Origin: an uncultured candidate division Zixibacteria bacterium
GTDB lineage: Bacteria; Zixibacteria; MSB-5A5; RBG-16-43-9
Direction of reading: 5' to 3'
DNA: 64,000 nucleotides
Assembly: GCA_963713865.1 (NCBI GenBank)
Contig: OY970208.1
Location: forward strand, 1,728,001 to 1,792,000
Positions 6 through 8,700 of this stretch are shown here, piece after piece (position 1 is the stretch's first letter; each line of letters starts with the position of its first letter). The position numbers and the translations under genes are program-made. Below the pieces are notes generated by a model. The model was not told the origin of the DNA and ran no database searches. It was given only the letters and a program-made list of their open reading frames with translations.

Positions 6-1391
6 ATGAAGATATGGTTTTCGAATGTGGATATTTCAAAAGAAGCCGTTTGCTACAGAGCTTTTAATAATCCACCCAGAGAAGAGATATGTTCCTATTG
101 CCCGACCTGTAAGACGTTAAATGACGGGCAAGTCCATGAATCGGTAACAGATATTCCGACTGGAGAAAGAATTGTCAACTATAGATTAATTTCATCTCCG
201 ATCAAAGATATGGATGGAAAAGTTATATCAGCCATAGAAATGGTGGAAGACATCACTGAAAGGAAAAAGCTTCAAGAACAGTTGATCCAAACAGAAAAAT
301 TAGCCGCAGTAGGAACCTTAGCTTACGGGATTGCCCACGAGTTCAACAATATCTTAGCTGGCATGCTGGCAAATGCGGAGTTGGGTCTGGTCACGGACGA
401 GCCCCGGCAGATCAAGGAGTGTTTTGAGATCATAGCGGATAATTCTCATCGAGCCGCAAGCATTACCAACAATCTTTTAGCCTTTGCCCGGCAGAAAGAG
501 GCGAGAAAAGAGTTAATCGATATAACCGAGCCTTTGAGAAGCGTTTTAGCAGTAACCCGGCGTGACTTAGAGAAGCTCAACATAGAGATCGAGGAGAAAG
601 TCAAACCTATCCCTAAGATTTACTGTGATGCCGGACAACTATCCGAGGTTTTCTTGAATATGGTCACCAATGCCCGGGATGCTATGCATCCTAAAGGAGG
701 AACTCTGACAATTCAGGTTGAACCGGACCAGGATAATATCCGGATCATCTTCAAAGATACTGGTTGTGGGATACCGGAGGAGATAAGGGGAAAAATCTTC
801 GAGCCTTTTGTAACCACCAAGGGAGTATTAGGTGGAAGTGAGGTTCCTGGAACAGGCTTAGGGCTTTTCCTCACCTACGGGATAATAAACGGTTATCAGG
901 GAAAGATTGAGGTGGAATCAAAAGTGGGTAAAGGAACACAGTTTATTATATCAATCCCTGTTTCCAAAAACCTGCCTCCCCAACCTGTTCAGGAAATTAA
1001 GAATGAACCTTTCGGGGAGATTGAGAGGAAATTGAAAATCCTGTTAGTGGATAATGAGGAAACGATAGTTTCCGGTTTAAAGAAGTTTTTAGAATCCAGG
1101 GGGCATCAGGTAACCTCCTCTTTACGAGGGAAAAAGGGGTTAAGACTTTTCAAAAAAGATAAGTTCGATTTAGTTTTATCTGACATTACCATGCCGGATA
1201 TGGATGGGATAGAGCTGATTAAAAAGATTAGAGAGCAGGATCAGGAGATCAAGATCATAGTGATAACCGGACATATAATGCAAGTAAAAGAGAATGAAGC
1301 CTGGAAAGCCGGGGCTGATGAATTTTTAATCAAGCCGTTTAAAAATGAAGTGCTGTGTTTGGCTATATCAAAATTGATGACGGAAATTTGA
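6..1391 (+). CDS. Hybrid sensor histidine kinase/response regulator (PAS-HisKA-HATPase-REC), probably 5'-truncated by the window edge
   Basis: H-box IAHEFNN, N-box NARDAM, G1 DTGCGI, F-box FEPFVTTK, G2 GTGLGL; C-terminal receiver (LSDITMPDMDG, KPF). Confidence 0.92.
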   Translation: MKIWFSNVDISKEAVCYRAFNNPPREEICSYCPTCKTLNDGQVHESVTDIPTGERIVNYRLISSPIKDMDGKVISAIEMVEDITERKKLQEQLIQTEKLAAVGTLAYGIAHEFNNILAGMLANAELGLVTDEPRQIKECFEIIADNSHRAASITNNLLAFARQKEARKELIDITEPLRSVLAVTRRDLEKLNIEIEEKVKPIPKIYCDAGQLSEVFLNMVTNARDAMHPKGGTLTIQVEPDQDNIRIIFKDTGCGIPEEIRGKIFEPFVTTKGVLGGSEVPGTGLGLFLTYGIINGYQGKIEVESKVGKGTQFIISIPVSKNLPPQPVQEIKNEPFGEIERKLKILLVDNEETIVSGLKKFLESRGHQVTSSLRGKKGLRLFKKDKFDLVLSDITMPDMDGIELIKKIREQDQEIKIIVITGHIMQVKENEAWKAGADEFLIKPFKNEVLCLAISKLMTEI

Positions 1392-3388: not shown

Positions 3389-3417
3389 TTAATAATTTCT
3401 AATATATTTTTTCCAAT

Positions 3418-3436
3418 ACTGACTGGTTCTGACACA
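3418..3436. promoter_or_regulatory. Operator-like motif TGAC-N7-GACA upstream of the WYL gene
   Basis: ACTGACTGGTTCTGACACA, similar to sites at 1620, 4551, 5464. Confidence 0.55.
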
Positions 3437-3492
3437 GGGCGTCTTAGATTTGAATTTGAGAGGAGTATTATATATAAGAGAAAGGACATCGG

Positions 3493-4527
3493 ATGTCCAA
3501 ATATGCTCGACTCCTACAGGTTTTAAATCTATTGAAAAGCAGACCTGGGATTTCAGCTAAGGATTTAGCACTGGATTGTCAGGTATCCAGAAGAACAATT
3601 TTCCGGGATATTCTCTCCCTCTGTTCCGCAGAAATACCAGTTTTTTACGACAAGGGTTATCGGCTCCTTCCAGGAACATTTCTACCTACTTTAAACTTCG
3701 ATCTGGATGAATATCTGACCCTGAAAAGTATCTTATCCGCAGATCTGTTCAAGAATAAAAACTTTCTGGGCAATACCATACTGAGTGTCCTCTCGAAGAT
3801 TGAAATAAATTTAAATTCTGATTTAAAAGAGAAATTGAAGGAGATCTGTATTCCTTTACACTTTTCATTCCAGACAAGCAACGGGGATAAGGACCGAGCT
3901 TTTATATTCAAGATTTTGAAAGAAGCCGTCCTGGAGAAAAGAAGCATTATTTTGAATTACGGAATTCGGGACTTATTCAAATCCGATTTCAAAGTTGATC
4001 CGGTCAGTTTGGCTCTCAAGCAACAGCGGTGGTATCTTGTAGGAAACTGCAGAAATTACAATGTTTATTTCCCTTTCAGTCTGGATTACATTAATAGAGT
4101 TACTTTAACCAATAGCAATTTTAGTCTGACAAAGGATTTTTCACTGAACGACTTTTTTGAGAAGAGCCTGGGTGTATGCCAAACAAAGTTAATCGAGGTG
4201 GAGCTGCAACTTCTCAAAGAGAATAAATATTTTTTAGATAATATTTCAAATCTGATTATAGATCTCTCAAAACATAAAGATGGCTCAATTTCGTGCAGAT
4301 TGAAAGTGAAAGGAGTAAATGAGCTTGCCAGATGGCTTTTAGGTTTTTCAGGCGAGGTGAAAGTGATAAGCCCGTCTGAACTGAAAGAAAGATTGCTCAA
4401 GCTTTTAGATAATCAAATGAGAATTTATCAGAAAAGAAACAAAGTGAGAAAATGGGTTCCGGTTTGTTCTTTTTATGAGAAGTACAAGTTGCTATGCAGT
4501 GATCTCTGCCTGGATCCGGTGTTTTAA
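3493..4527 (+). CDS. HTH-WYL-WCX transcriptional regulator (YafY/PafBC-like) with a Cys-rich C-terminal extension
   Basis: wHTH VSRRTIFRDI; WYL motif RWYLVG; WCX RWLLGFSGEVKVISPSELK; tail KWVPVC..C...CLDPVF. Confidence 0.92.
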   Translation: MSKYARLLQVLNLLKSRPGISAKDLALDCQVSRRTIFRDILSLCSAEIPVFYDKGYRLLPGTFLPTLNFDLDEYLTLKSILSADLFKNKNFLGNTILSVLSKIEINLNSDLKEKLKEICIPLHFSFQTSNGDKDRAFIFKILKEAVLEKRSIILNYGIRDLFKSDFKVDPVSLALKQQRWYLVGNCRNYNVYFPFSLDYINRVTLTNSNFSLTKDFSLNDFFEKSLGVCQTKLIEVELQLLKENKYFLDNISNLIIDLSKHKDGSISCRLKVKGVNELARWLLGFSGEVKVISPSELKERLLKLLDNQMRIYQKRNKVRKWVPVCSFYEKYKLLCSDLCLDPVF

Positions 4528-4550
4528 ATAGTTTAAAAATATTTTAAACT

Positions 4551-4569
4551 TATGACAGGTTCTGACATA
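4551..4569. promoter_or_regulatory. Operator-like imperfect palindrome, copy 1
   Basis: TATGACA-ggttc-TGACATA, one mismatch from the perfect palindrome TATGACA-N5-TGTCATA. Confidence 0.55.
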
Positions 4570-4614
4570 TTGAATTTCGATAAACTTAACAGGGAAATTA
4601 ATAGGGGGTACTGC

Positions 4615-5019
4615 ATGAAACAAAACCGCGATTTACTTCTACGGGTATTATCAGGCAAATTATTCTCCAAATCCGGATCCACCGGAGAGGACGAGAAAAG
4701 AGAAATTGCCATCAGGGCCATCCAGAAATTGATGGCCAGCATCTCTTATTATATAGTCGATCCTCTAACTGTGGTTCAAGCAAAAGCTGAGCTTTTAGAA
4801 GAATCTCTAAAAAAGAAAAAATTAAAAGGAGAGGAGATAGAAAGTTTCATATCTTTATGTAAAGAGCAGTTCCGCAAGATAAATCTGATTTTGAACGCCT
4901 TAAGTTCTCTTTCCGAGCTCAGGTATAGAAAATATCCCTTAGGCATAGAGATAATCGATATAGAAGATAAGATCAAAAAAGATCTGAGATCAAAACTGGT
5001 CTTGCGGAAAACAGATTAA
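4615..5019 (+). CDS. Stand-alone HisKA/DHp-like protein with Tyr at the phospho-His position, paralog 1
   Basis: ATG after AGGGGG RBS; LMASISYYIVDPLTVVQAKAELL resembles the H-box xSHxINNPLTVIxGxAELL; no catalytic ATPase domain. Confidence 0.75.
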   Translation: MKQNRDLLLRVLSGKLFSKSGSTGEDEKREIAIRAIQKLMASISYYIVDPLTVVQAKAELLEESLKKKKLKGEEIESFISLCKEQFRKINLILNALSSLSELRYRKYPLGIEIIDIEDKIKKDLRSKLVLRKTD

Positions 5020-5035
5020 TGCAGATGGAACTCAA

Positions 5036-5156
5036 CAGGAAGGAAAGAGGGTAAAGGGAGTTTATCCAGAAACCGGTCTTGTCCGGGGGGCTGGGACTGG
5101 TTTCATCCTTCCCCCAAGCTGGGCTCCTAAGGGGGGGAGCCCAGCTTTCCTCTTTT
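5036..5156 (+). ncRNA. Putative structured RNA (three hairpins closed by a terminal stem), copy 1
   Basis: GGGTAAA/TTTATCC, GAAACCGGTC/GACTGGTTTC, AAGCTGGGCTCC/GGAGCCCAGCTT, AAAGAGG/CCTCTTT; compensatory changes versus copy 2. Confidence 0.55.
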
Positions 5157-5160
5157 AACT

Positions 5161-5440
5161 CTTCTGCCTAAAGATTATTCTTTAGATAATTATTTTGAGA
5201 ATAGCTGAGGGGTATGTCAAGCCAAGTTGATTAAGGTAGAGTTGAAACTTCTAAAAGAGAATAGATATATTTTAGATAATCTTTCATCTCTGGTTGAAAA
5301 TACCTCAAAATCTAAAATGGGGTAATCAGCAGAGAATCTATCAGAAAGGAAGTAGAGTGAAAAAATGGGTTCCGGTTTGTCCGCTGTACGAGGAGTTCAG
5401 ATTGTTGTGTAATGATGCCTGCCTGGATCCGGTGTTTTAA
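5161..5440 (+). pseudogene. Remnant of a second WYL gene (3' part, in-frame TGA, internal deletion)
   Basis: Translates LLPKDYSLDNYFENS*GVCQAKLIKVELKLLKENRYILDNLSSLVE, matching WYL FSLTKDFSLNDFFEKSLGVCQTKLIEVELQLLKENKYFLDNISNLII; then NQQRIYQKGSRVKKWVPVCPLYEEFRLLCNDACLDPVF*. Confidence 0.85.
5357..5440 (+). CDS. Possible 27-aa Cys-rich peptide equivalent to the WYL C-terminal tail
   Basis: AAGGA 6 nt before GTG; MKKWVPVCPLYEEFRLLCNDACLDPVF; synonymous and conservative changes versus the WYL tail. Confidence 0.4.
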   Translation: MKKWVPVCPLYEEFRLLCNDACLDPVF

Positions 5441-5463
5441 ATAGTTTAAAAATATTTTAAACT

Positions 5464-5482
5464 TATGACAGGTTCTGACATA
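5464..5482. promoter_or_regulatory. Operator-like imperfect palindrome, copy 2
   Basis: Identical to 4551-4569. Confidence 0.55.
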
Positions 5483-5527
5483 TTGAATTTCGATAAACTT
5501 AACAGGGAAATTAATAGGGGGTACTGC

Positions 5528-5992
5528 ATGAAACAAAACCACGATTTACTTCTACGGGTATTATTAGGAAAATACTTCGAAGAAGAGAAAAAAGAAATCT
5601 CCATAGAAGTCATCGAGAAATTGATGACCACTATCTCTTATTATCTGGGAGACCCTTTAACCGTAATTCTGGGAAAAACCGAGCTGTTAGAAGAATCTCT
5701 AAAAAATAGAGATTTGCACAGGGAGGAAATAGCGGATTTCCTCTCTTTATGCAGAGATCAGCTCACCAGGATAAGCCTGGTCTTGAATACTTTACAATCT
5801 CTTAATGAGCTCAGATATAGAAACTATCCCCTGGGTATTGAGATGATCGATATAGAAGACAAAATCAAACTCGGTCAGGAGAAGAATCAGAACCCATCTG
5901 AAGTTGACCAGGATATTTTAGTTCGCAGTTCCGTTGGAGTTCCACGGAACAGGTTGAGGAAGACGGAACTCTACAGGAAGGAAAGAGGATAA
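5528..5992 (+). CDS. Stand-alone HisKA/DHp-like protein with Tyr at the phospho-His position, paralog 2
   Basis: LMTTISYYLGDPLTVILGKTELL ... LRYRNYPLGIEMIDIEDKIK; clear paralog of 4615-5019. Confidence 0.75.
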   Translation: MKQNHDLLLRVLLGKYFEEEKKEISIEVIEKLMTTISYYLGDPLTVILGKTELLEESLKNRDLHREEIADFLSLCRDQLTRISLVLNTLQSLNELRYRNYPLGIEMIDIEDKIKLGQEKNQNPSEVDQDILVRSSVGVPRNRLRKTELYRKERG

Positions 5993-6090
5993 AAGTAGTT
6001 ATCCCGAAGCCGGTCTTGTCCGGGGGGCTGGGACTGGTTTCATCCTTCCCCCAGGCTGGGCTCTTAGGGGGGAGCTCAGCCTTCCTCTTT
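5974..6090 (+). ncRNA. Putative structured RNA, copy 2
   Basis: GGATAA/TTATCC, GAAGCCGGTC/GACTGGTTTC, AGGCTGGGCTC/GAGCTCAGCCT, AAAGAGG/CCTCTTT. Confidence 0.55.
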
Positions 6091-6125
6091 AATTCGCTGA
6101 CCTGATCATAAAGAGGTTAAAAATT

Positions 6126-6317
6126 ATGAACTGCTGGGATTTTATTAAATGTCCTCAAGAGTACCGGGAGTATTGCCTGGCTTACCCGAACTACGGTAAA
6201 ATCTGCTGGAAAGCAACTTTGGTAAGTTGTAAAACCGGTAAAATTCTTGATTCCGGAAAGAAGCTGGAAGAGTGTTTGAGGTGTGAATTTTATAAATTCA
6301 GAAAACCAAACATATAA
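6126..6317 (+). CDS. Small Cys-rich 'two-CW'-type protein
   Basis: AGAGG RBS; NCWDFIKC...CLAY...ICW...C...CLRCEFY. Confidence 0.75.
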   Translation: MNCWDFIKCPQEYREYCLAYPNYGKICWKATLVSCKTGKILDSGKKLEECLRCEFYKFRKPNI

Positions 6318-6576
6318 ATAAAGCAAAGGGTTGAAGCAGAATAAATGAAGAAGTAAAGCTATAACTATCAGGTAGCAATGGGGTGGCACTATAAAATAAA
6401 AGTTTTTCTCCATAGAGGAAGAGGTTCTTCTTCGGGAGGGGTGGATCCCTTAAAATGAGCTACAGGATAATAAAATATCCTAAAGGTAGTTTAGAAAATA
6501 GAGCTACCTTTAAATTTTATTGCTAATGACTGATAGGCATAAAAAGTTAGGTTCCTACCATCTAAAGAGGGCTATT

Positions 6577-8700
6577 ATGAGATCAAAACATTATTTAGGT
6601 ATAGCTCTGTTGTCACTGTTAGTTTCAGGAGTAAATATTTTGTCAGCTCAAACCTCAGATGAACTTGACGATCTGATGAAGATGAGTTTGGAAGATCTCT
6701 TAAATGTTTCCGCCGTTTCTGGCGTTCGTCATGAACAGAGGATTATAGACTCCCCCAGATCGATCTCCGTTATTACCGCAGAAGAGATTAGAAAGAAAAA
6801 TTTTCGCAGCACCCCGGAAGCTTTGAACGAGCTGGTTGGTATTCTGATCCAGGAAACAAATTACGGAGGAGGATCGCCTATCATCCGGGGATTGATTGGA
6901 AATCAGATTTTAATCTTGATTGATGGGGTCAGATTAAATAATGCCATTTTCCGTCTTGGACCGAATCAATACCTAAATACCATCGATCTTAATCAAATTG
7001 AAAGGATCGAGATAGTGCGAGGACCCGGCTCAGTGCTTTATGGCAGCGATGCCTTAGGAGGTTTAATTAATATCATCACCAAGTCCAGAAAAGGCTATAG
7101 TAAAGATCTGGATATCGGCGCAAGATTTTATACTCGGTATGCCAGTGCGGATAAGGGGAAAATTGGACGTATTGACCTCAGCGGAAATATCAAGAAAATG
7201 GGTATTACGGGAGGATTTAGTTATAAAATATTTGGTGATCTGCGAGCCGGGGATGGAGTAGGGTTTCAACCCTTTACCAGTTATGATGAGTGGAATCTTG
7301 ATCTCAAAATGAATCTTGAATTATCAAAGCGACAGAATGTTTCAATCGGTTTGCAAAAGGTCGATCAATTAAATCTACCTCGAACAGATAAGCTGATATC
7401 GGGTTCAGACTTAAAACATGAATGGGATCCAGAAGGGAGGGATCTGCTCTATGCACAATATGAATTTGAAAAAATCAACTCTTTGGTTAACAAGCTTTAT
7501 GCTGGGTTCTCTTATCAAAATCAATTAGAGGATTTATATATAATTACCAGCTCTAAACCAAAGATCCAGCAAGAGCTTCACAATGAAGTCAAATCAGTTG
7601 GATTTACATTTCAACTAATTTCTGAACTGGGTAAACATCAGCTCTTAACTTATGGTGCTGAGTATTACGCGGATAATATTGAAAGTCATAGAGTAGATGT
7701 CGATATCACTACAGGTACACGCACCAACAAAAAAGGCACATTTGCTGATGGTTCAACTTACCGGTCCACCGCAGGATTTTTGCAGGATGAGATACGGTTG
7801 ATGAAATCTATATCCCTGATTATTGGGGTAAGATACAGTTGGTTTGATGCCCAGGCTACAGTTGATGATCCGCTAACCGGAGCTATCCAGGTCCATTCTA
7901 CTCCTACCGCCTTGACTACAAGTGCCAGAGCTTTGTATAAATTGACAGAGAATCTCGTTGTTACTTTTGGTGTTGGTCAGGGCTTCAGGGCTCCTAATAT
8001 CGACGACTTGTCAATTTTGGGGAGTTTCGGCAGTGGGTTCGAGGTCCCCAATCCAAATCTCGAACCGGAGCAGAACATAAATTATGAGATCGGTCTTAAG
8101 GCGCAGCATAGAAAATTTACCGGTTCCTTATATTATTTCCTCAGTAATTATAAAGACTTAATCGAGCGAGGTACCGGCACTTTTAACAACCTTCCATTTT
8201 TGGATAACAATGGCAACGGTATCCAGGATCCAGGAGAGCAGAGTGTTTTTCAAAGAAAGAACATAGTTAAAGCACGTATCCGGGGGGTTGAGGCAGAGGG
8301 ACAAATCCAGATTTTACCTGCATGGACTGTCCTGGGTAATCTTGCCTGGATTAAGGGCGATAATTTAGCTGATAATACACCACTTAGACGCATCCCGCCG
8401 ATCAAGGGGAAATTCAGCATAGAGTGGAGGTTGAAAAATAATTTATGGACGGAATACTACAATTTGTTTGCTACCAAACAGGATAGACTTGCACCAGGGG
8501 ACCTGCAAGACCCTCGTATCCCTGTGGGTGGCACACCTGGATTTTTAACCTTCAATATCCGAGGAGGGCTGGATCTCAACAGATTTGGCAATGTCACAAT
8601 TGGCTGGGAAAATATAACGGACAAAGCCTACAGACTACATGGTTCCGGTATTGATGGCCCCGGCATTAATCTTGTGGTTGGTTATGAGTTAACCTTTTAA
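6577..8700 (+). CDS. TonB-dependent receptor
   Basis: Signal peptide, plug (SISVITAEEI; IERIEIVRGPGSVLYGSDALGGLINIIT), NPNLEPE, C-terminal YELTF. Confidence 0.93.
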   Translation: MRSKHYLGIALLSLLVSGVNILSAQTSDELDDLMKMSLEDLLNVSAVSGVRHEQRIIDSPRSISVITAEEIRKKNFRSTPEALNELVGILIQETNYGGGSPIIRGLIGNQILILIDGVRLNNAIFRLGPNQYLNTIDLNQIERIEIVRGPGSVLYGSDALGGLINIITKSRKGYSKDLDIGARFYTRYASADKGKIGRIDLSGNIKKMGITGGFSYKIFGDLRAGDGVGFQPFTSYDEWNLDLKMNLELSKRQNVSIGLQKVDQLNLPRTDKLISGSDLKHEWDPEGRDLLYAQYEFEKINSLVNKLYAGFSYQNQLEDLYIITSSKPKIQQELHNEVKSVGFTFQLISELGKHQLLTYGAEYYADNIESHRVDVDITTGTRTNKKGTFADGSTYRSTAGFLQDEIRLMKSISLIIGVRYSWFDAQATVDDPLTGAIQVHSTPTALTTSARALYKLTENLVVTFGVGQGFRAPNIDDLSILGSFGSGFEVPNPNLEPEQNINYEIGLKAQHRKFTGSLYYFLSNYKDLIERGTGTFNNLPFLDNNGNGIQDPGEQSVFQRKNIVKARIRGVEAEGQIQILPAWTVLGNLAWIKGDNLADNTPLRRIPPIKGKFSIEWRLKNNLWTEYYNLFATKQDRLAPGDLQDPRIPVGGTPGFLTFNIRGGLDLNRFGNVTIGWENITDKAYRLHGSGIDGPGINLVVGYELTF

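Follow-up and report, generated by a model that had tools for sequence, protein, structure and literature searches.

CpxQ, SroC and DapZ are small RNAs of enterobacteria that derive from the 3′ untranslated regions (3′-UTRs) of messenger RNAs (mRNAs), and RNAs of the CsrB/RsmZ type titrate CsrA. With these, and with intrinsic terminators and the orphan structured RNA motifs of Rfam, we compare here an RNA element of about 130 nt that lies at the 3′ ends of two small genes coding for DHp-like proteins in an uncultured candidate division Zixibacteria bacterium. The stretch analyzed (hereinafter the window) spans 64,000 nt of contig OY970208.1 (assembly GCA_963713865.1, positions 1,728,001 to 1,792,000, forward strand) and holds two copies of the element, A and B, which covariance-model matches place at 5027-5159 (+) and 5965-6094 (+), with ~90% mutual identity. 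Each copy combines a three-way junction, built from a closing helix (P1) and hairpins 1 and 2, with a terminator-like hairpin 3, and the element is the best-conserved stretch of its locus.

Like the 3′-UTR-derived RNAs of the CpxQ/SroC/DapZ type, the element shares the terminator of its mRNA and is better conserved than the coding region that precedes it; unlike them, its fragment release and seed are putative, Hfq was not found in the genome, its three-way junction overlaps the stop codon and its lineage is uncultivated. With CsrB/RsmZ it has in common several GGA motifs (one of them in a hairpin loop), a terminal terminator hairpin and a csrA gene in the same genome (86.7 bits), but its GGA motifs are clustered in ~27 nt, mostly coding, partly paired and absent from a diverged version in the genome G011 (described below), and the element is not a free-standing gene. 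The resemblance to intrinsic terminators lies in hairpin 3, a GC-rich stem with a T-rich tail just after a gene; however, ~90 nt of conserved structured RNA, starting inside the open reading frame (ORF), stand ahead of it, its loop and flanks are sequence-conserved across genera, and its U-tract is interrupted by C in many copies. As with the orphan motifs of Rfam, its fold is lineage-restricted, conserved and gene-associated, yet no family of Rfam 15 matches the element at gathering score or with a convincing E-value. A search of the whole window at gathering score returned two tRNAs only, the best match in 4400-6500 at E-values up to 10 reached 18.1 bits against a cut-off of 48, and the best match for the G011 homolog reached 16.6 bits against a cut-off of 39. 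The preliminary description of this DNA, made from the sequence without database searches, had called the element a candidate novel motif, which agrees with this absence of Rfam matches to either window copy; no description of structured RNAs of Zixibacteria was found in the literature searched, with supplementary files outside the search. Overall, we rate the element as one that would work most like a 3′-UTR RNA domain sharing the terminator of its gene, in the form of a lineage-restricted, gene-associated motif.

Fold and conservation of the element

The fold obtained with RNAalifold and a covariance model has P1 (GGAAGGA/UCCUUCC) closing hairpins 1 and 2 into a three-way junction, with GGAUAA/UUAUCC and the loop AAGGAG forming hairpin 1. 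Hairpin 2 (GAAGCCGGUC.../...GACUGGUUUC) is long, has a conserved G-rich top and is followed by a short linker, beyond which lies hairpin 3 (GGCUGGGCUC/GAGCCCAGCC). All three hairpins reported in the preliminary description are present and fold in each copy, and the base changes that it named between the copies are real: the pair at the base of hairpin 3 goes from A-U in copy A to G-C in copy B, GGGTAA to GGATAA turns a G·U into an A-U pair, and GAAACC to GAAGCC and GAGCCC to GAGCTC each yield a G·U. For the statistics of pairing we pooled 27 matches (26 full and one cut by a contig end) from the window, the genomes of six relatives and 15 metagenome contigs, which amount to 22 distinct sequences. 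Over these, 98.7% of cells keep their pairing (slid partners: 42-64%), with P1, hairpin 2 and hairpin 3 pairing in 100% of cells, so that the conservation in related genomes proposed for checking with a covariance model is borne out. The paired columns contain 143 G·U cells against 3 A·C cells, and 15 of the 43 pairs are G·U in at least one sequence; we therefore assign the structure to RNA of the plus strand, as had been suggested, and the asymmetry counts against a dyad acting at the level of DNA.

Two further pairings put forward in the preliminary description fared less well. For the closing stem AAAGAGG/CCTCTTT, 87.8% of cells pair (18 of 147 do not), slid controls reach 70-77%, and no pair is changed on both sides; the 3′ half of the stem is the variable T-rich tail, which makes it no better than composition allows, and the best-supported closing helix is instead GGAAGGA/TCCTTCC around hairpins 1 and 2. 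Likewise, the pseudoknot between the G-rich loops and the linker shows no covariation, and in one genus, where the linker CCCCA has become CUUGAC, the C-run is lost while the G-runs stay, the change lengthening P1 to 9 bp rather than keeping the pairing with the G-run.

Hairpin 3 has a GC-rich stem of 12-13 bp, a loop of 4-6 nt and a T-rich tail on the coding strand. Both of its sites in the window (5116-5147 and 6053-6082) were called terminator-like, among seven such sites in the region against 2.4 ± 1.8 in shuffles. Every one of the 21 full distinct copies has a T-rich tail, broken by C or A, with variants such as TTCCTCTTT, TTTCTCTTT, TTTTTTTATTTT, TTATTATTATT and TAACTATTT; this T-rich but variable make-up fits a U-tract and not a specific pairing partner. 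By its sequence, hairpin 3 with its tail is thus a predicted intrinsic terminator. The statement that the element is more elaborate than a terminator accordingly holds only in part, as hairpin 3 and the tail are themselves terminator-like.

We computed an identity profile from six single-copy loci, drawn from three genera and metagenomes and aligned from the WYL-family regulator gene upstream to the two-CW-like gene downstream. Mean pairwise identity is 0.86-0.92 in the element and 0.64-0.83 in coding DNA; toward the C-terminal end of the small gene, which is variable, it falls to 0.23-0.53, and right after the element to at most 0.2. In most copies the ORF of the small gene extends 25 nt into the element, ending ...EL(Y/C)RKERG-TAA, so that the 5′ strand of P1 comes from its last nine codons and the stop codon lies in hairpin 1. 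Among the 22 distinct copies, 11 have their stop, a TAA, within the 5′ arm of hairpin 1, three have a TGA 16-19 nt inside the element and five (A-type copies) a TAA 10 nt before it, the remaining three being irregular or cut. Of the last 9 codons, 8 have an unvarying third position, compared with 34 of the 124 codons making up the rest of the ORF (Fisher p = 4e-4), and the A-type copies keep the same 28 nt although these are non-coding there. The GGA-rich 5′ side remarked on earlier corresponds, in most copies, to the nine codons with which the ORF ends. Translation of the element beyond the stop codon, considered separately, was rejected as unsupported, the copies differing by indels of 1 and 2 nt.

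Distribution, cassette duplication and diverged versions

The host genome, a single contig of 2,723,046 bases, contains only the two full copies of the element; the next-best match is a 30-nt piece at 2.38 Mb inside a 527-aa ORF. BLAST searches recovered the element in seven of the nine genomes of the family (the host of the window included) and in none of 52 genomes outside it. The covariance model, built from nine copies that themselves score 135.6-153.1 bits, gave nothing else above 20 bits in 34 genomes of the order, and a metagenome scan with the hairpin 2 pattern added 15 contigs with 17 further full copies and one cut copy. All full copies stand behind the same small gene, within one bacterial family and the metagenome contigs; an ORF ends within 37 nt of the element start in 21 of the 22 distinct copies, the 22nd being cut by a contig end. 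Hence the element does not behave like a repeat of the REP or MITE kind, with many copies in unrelated contexts: the preliminary description had set it apart from the REP families of the window, and it is not spread genome-wide, with two copies in 2.72 Mb and the copies elsewhere following the same gene. The hairpin 2 motif occurs in 10 of the 285 genomes of the phylum, one of these being a chance terminator-like site. We discarded the six best weak covariance hits (G011 excepted), which on re-alignment consisted mostly of the terminator-like hairpin 3 segment without junction and hairpin 2, as well as a contig scan with a looser pattern, in which 76 of the 80 loci listed were chance matches.

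The presence of two copies in the window results from tandem duplication of a whole gene cassette and not from spread of the motif. While the duplication of an element of ~120 nt had been recognized, its extent was underestimated, as the repeat covers the whole of 4500-5156, duplicated as 5413-6090. Its unit comprises the 3′ part of the WYL gene, the conserved upstream region, the small ORF and the element. Identity is 96% over 166 nt (4500-4665 versus 5413-5578) and 75% over 291 nt (4687-4977 versus 5579-5869), and within the element a repeat search returned blocks of 74 nt (93%; 5062-5135 and 5999-6072), 53 nt (83%) and 24 nt (92%), altogether spanning about 5010-5155 versus 5948-6090. A 28-nt core is identical in copies A and B, with no match in 100 shuffles. 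The content of the duplicated unit is revealed by a decayed WYL remnant between the cassettes; since tandem pairs with the same remnant between the copies recur in several metagenome contigs and in another genus, the duplication is old.

Two diverged, syntenic versions of the element were recovered in a second family, in the genomes G011 and G013. The G011 copy lies directly 3′ of the homologous gene, with a WYL gene upstream, and matches the model with 17.8 bits. Folded alone, it forms the same junction from other sequence: P1 is UUCUUAGGG/CCCUAAGAG, hairpin 1 is AGGGGG/UCCCCU with a TGA stop in its loop, and the top of hairpin 2 (GGGGGGCU) is the same; the fold has z = -5.76, with none of 200 shuffles as good. 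Adding G011 to the alignment yields changes on both sides at 10 of the 43 pairs (four of seven in P1, three of six in hairpin 1), against 1.5 ± 1.1 in shuffles and 0-4 for slid partners. The G013 copy keeps hairpin 2 together with a closing helix of the GGGAG/CUCCC type, in a less clear-cut fold (z = -1.67). In both copies an extra hairpin with a C-rich loop follows, and then a clean terminator. This extra hairpin (L062, about 1300-1375 (-); L107, about 6985-7040 (+)) has the loop UCCCC or UCCUC, which is complementary to the G-run at the top of hairpin 2, making a kissing contact between the two conceivable.

In a neighboring family, the homologous gene keeps the phospho-acceptor His (ISHYL) and is followed only by a hairpin and a T-run, and no WYL gene lies within 1.5 kb at any of 16 loci. 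The hairpin arms there often read GCCAGYC...GGCTGGYTTTT and resemble hairpin 2, a likeness by which hairpin 2 may be a former terminator turned internal arm. Loss of the His, adjacency of the WYL gene and the junction thus co-occur in the two element-carrying families and are all missing in the neighboring one, and the three may reflect one evolutionary event. Eight of nine genomes have the WYL gene immediately upstream in their element-bearing loci, the contig of the ninth being cut; in one metagenome contig (L213, 1651-3674) the small gene and its element lack a WYL neighbor and come immediately after a 419-aa kinase-like ORF, with neither a sigma-54 regulator nor a WYL gene intervening. As a separate observation, neighboring-family loci (L070, L072, L074, L075, L076 and L078) have in common a block of ~35 nt (AAAGTTAAAGCA...CCCTGAA...GCCGAT), about 130-200 nt after the small gene, with a short dyad GCACC...GGTGC.

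Possible function and rival explanations

We give roughly even chances to the reading that each copy is the 3′-terminal RNA domain of the transcript of the small, His-less DHp-like gene and is recognized by a partner. In this proposal, which is built from sequence comparison, hairpin 3 and the U-rich tail would end transcription, each terminating ribosome would melt the junction just upstream, and the junction would refold afterwards. The folded domain would then be recognized by a specific partner, most likely a protein, which would decide what becomes of the mRNA, or of a stable ~130-nt 3′ piece cleaved from it; the domain would thereby adjust the output of a modulator gene that belongs to a two-component signaling cluster. 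Recognition by a specific partner is made probable by the fixation of nearly every nucleotide, loops and single strands included, which favors such a partner over a hairpin serving stability alone. WYL domains are reported to sense single-stranded DNA (ssDNA), single-stranded RNA (ssRNA) or c-di-GMP, which makes the neighboring WYL regulator a candidate partner only. A closed RNA-based feedback loop, with the junction RNA as nucleic-acid signal or bound partner of a protein from the same locus (the WYL regulator or the His-less DHp four-helix protein), seems to us a doubtful extension of this idea. If functional, the element would be a structured RNA so far absent from the catalogs and belonging to an uncultivated bacterial lineage, behind a gene with its stop codon built into a conserved three-way junction, and would offer a possible link between RNA structure and a signaling cluster with a WYL regulator and a kinase-domain decoy. 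As a compact target of ~130 nt with natural variants it is suited to probing, reporter and binding work, its wider importance being limited for now by its narrow distribution.

Several observations weigh against a partner-recognized domain. Within the main family only 1 of the 43 pairs is changed on both sides (at the base of hairpin 3), the remaining stem changes being wobble changes; the expectation of covariation in homologs thus holds for P1 and hairpin 1 in the diverged G011 copy and barely within the family, and the G011 signal itself depends on a single diverged sequence, aligned by fitting to the model. The fold energy of the single sequences is ordinary (z = -1.82 for A and -1.74 for B, with 10 and 9 of 200 shuffles, respectively, folding as well), and the minus strand of copy A has z = -2.63. 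Coding constraint in the B-type copies could account for part of the conservation of the first 28 nt, and some of the structure may be inherited terminator material. A metatranscriptome run in which 7% of the sampled words occurred gave two 151-nt contigs over 3400-6700, which lie at 5556-5832, inside gene B only; the partner, the processing site and the effect on the mRNA are proposals. Two mechanisms were tried and set aside: anti-termination dependent on translation, as hairpin 3 persists in every fold with a blocked 5′ part, and pairing of the element with the 5′-UTR of its own gene, for which the best duplexes are weaker than those of shuffled elements at six of six loci (z +0.56 to +1.88); the GGGGG of the ribosome-binding site is retained where the C-run of the linker is lost.

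The conservation of loops and single strands also suits a trans-acting or sponge RNA, in which a released 3′ fragment of ~130 nt titrates CsrA, the WYL regulator or the DHp-like protein. In the window's family the GGA motifs number four to six and do not vary, the loop of hairpin 1 presents AAGGAG, and the genome has csrA; the WYL gene, directly upstream in eight of nine genomes, is absent from the 16 neighboring-family loci with a plain terminator. Yet GGA is missing from the equivalent strand in G011 (it is present in G013), P1 ties up two of the GGA motifs, Hfq was not found, and no conserved promoter or processing signal appears upstream, where conservation is lowest; the co-occurrence with the WYL gene may also stem from the single evolutionary event, and L213 retains gene and element without it, all of which leaves a sponge rather unlikely. 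Slightly less credit goes to the view that the element is a pair of terminator hairpins plus coding constraint, conserved by recent ancestry and tandem gene conversion and without extra function, a view that we hold to be unlikely. It draws on the terminator-like character of hairpin 3, the likeness of hairpin 2 to the neighboring-family terminator, the coding nature of the first 28 nt in most copies, the minimal covariation within the family and the 96-100% identity of the 5′ part of the cassette between copies, which suggests conversion. Against it, the element, loops and linkers included, is more conserved across three genera than any coding stretch of the locus, and identity drops to at most 0.2 after the tail; the ORF has fixed third codon positions only in its overlap with the element, the A-type copies keep the 28 nt without coding, and both G011 and G013 have P1 and hairpin 1 rebuilt with other sequence.

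An attenuator or riboswitch for the downstream genes (the two-CW gene and the TonB-dependent receptor), in which the junction decides termination at hairpin 3, we judge improbable. Element B lies 32 nt before the two-CW gene with its terminator after a structured domain, the stop codon within the structure couples it to translation, and, from the sequence, the freed 3′ strand of P1 with the linker (CUUCCCCC) could pair with GGGGGGAG of hairpin 3. However, hairpin 3 stayed intact in all seven sequences folded with the first 28 or 43 nt blocked, a thermodynamic test only, so no mutually exclusive fold was seen; the junction strands, of 0-4 nt, are not conserved between the two families, and the combination of a conserved pocket with a constant downstream gene was not found. 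Copy A precedes a gene remnant and the next cassette and not the two-CW gene, which is about 190 nt away in another genus and was not found in the second family, and the C-run of the linker is lost in one genus. A DNA-level element, whether a dyad bound by a protein, a site of recombination (an integron attC, for example) or a mobile repeat, would account for the inverted repeats and for the position at the end of a duplicated cassette; it is nevertheless very improbable, as the asymmetry of 143 G·U against 3 A·C is unexpected under the symmetry of DNA, there are only two copies per genome in a constant gene context, and the three separate hairpins form no single long imperfect palindrome and have no conserved terminal core sites.

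Genes of the locus

The neighborhood is a two-component signaling cluster with a hybrid kinase, a sigma-54 response regulator, the WYL regulator and the two small genes (Table 1), followed in order by the two-CW-like Cys-rich gene, a TonB-dependent receptor, a YfiR-like gene, a CHASE8 kinase, two receivers and a further hybrid kinase. The WYL-family gene matches the Pfam models WYL (1.7e-11), WCX (2.7e-10) and HTH_11 (2.4e-8), and such a gene lies 5′ of the small gene in most element-bearing loci. For the small genes, ATG 4615 and ATG 5528 are the most probable starts, each preceded by an AGGGGG ribosome-binding site, which is conserved in relatives. They match the HisKA (histidine-kinase dimerization) domain below threshold only; the protein of copy B can be aligned with the DHp helices of a histidine kinase of solved structure, a Tyr taking the place of the phospho-accepting His, and the small proteins have no ATPase domain. 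As stand-alone DHp-like dimerization domains, they may act as kinase decoys. The phospho-acceptor position is Tyr (ISYY) or Asn (INYY) in most loci of both element-carrying families; the small protein of G013 reads ISFHL, with a His shifted one residue onward, and the neighboring-family homologs retain the His (ISHYL). The Cys-rich ORF scores 33.6 bits against NCBIfam NF045718 (cut-off 35). The window's family keeps it 32 to about 190 nt 3′ of the element; it was not found in that position in the second family. The term 'two-CW domain' did not appear in the literature searched, supplementary files being outside the search.

Table 1. Positions of the element copies, their parts and the adjoining genes in the window.
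Feature	Position	Strand	Remarks
WYL-family regulator gene (HTH_11 - WYL - WCX)	3493-4527	+	Directly 5′ of the cassette
DHp-like small gene, copy A	4615-5019	+	134 aa from ATG (probable start); TAA stop 10 nt before element A
Element copy A	5027-5159	+	Covariance-model match, 138.3 bits; entirely non-coding here
Copy A, P1	5038-5044 with 5106-5112	+	
Copy A, hairpin 1	5049-5067	+	
Copy A, hairpin 2	5069-5104	+	
Copy A, hairpin 3	5116-5147	+	
Copy A, T-rich tail	5148-5157	+	
WYL gene remnant	5164-5437	+	C-terminal part, residues 212-264 and 307-344; tblastn 62% and 68% identity
DHp-like small gene, copy B	5528-5992	+	154 aa (probable start); last nine codons and TAA (5990-5992) inside element B
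Element copy B	5965-6094	+	Covariance-model match, 151.8 bits
Copy B, P1	5976-5982 with 6043-6049	+	
Copy B, hairpin 1	5987-6004	+	
Copy B, hairpin 2	6006-6041	+	
Copy B, hairpin 3	6053-6082	+	
Copy B, T-rich tail	6083-6092	+	
Small Cys-rich gene (two-CW domain-like)	6126-6317	+	63 aa; 32 nt after element B

Ahead of each small gene, an AT-rich palindrome (AGTTTAAAAATATTTTAAACT) runs across the WYL stop codon (4528-4553 and 5441-5466), with a TGACAGGTTCTGACATA ... TTTCGATAA motif, conserved between genera, after it; palindrome and motif could be the operator and promoter of the small gene. Further downstream, just 5′ of the ORF of the TonB-dependent receptor (6520), a 12-bp AT-rich hairpin with a T-rich stretch at 6481-6512 is likewise terminator-like.

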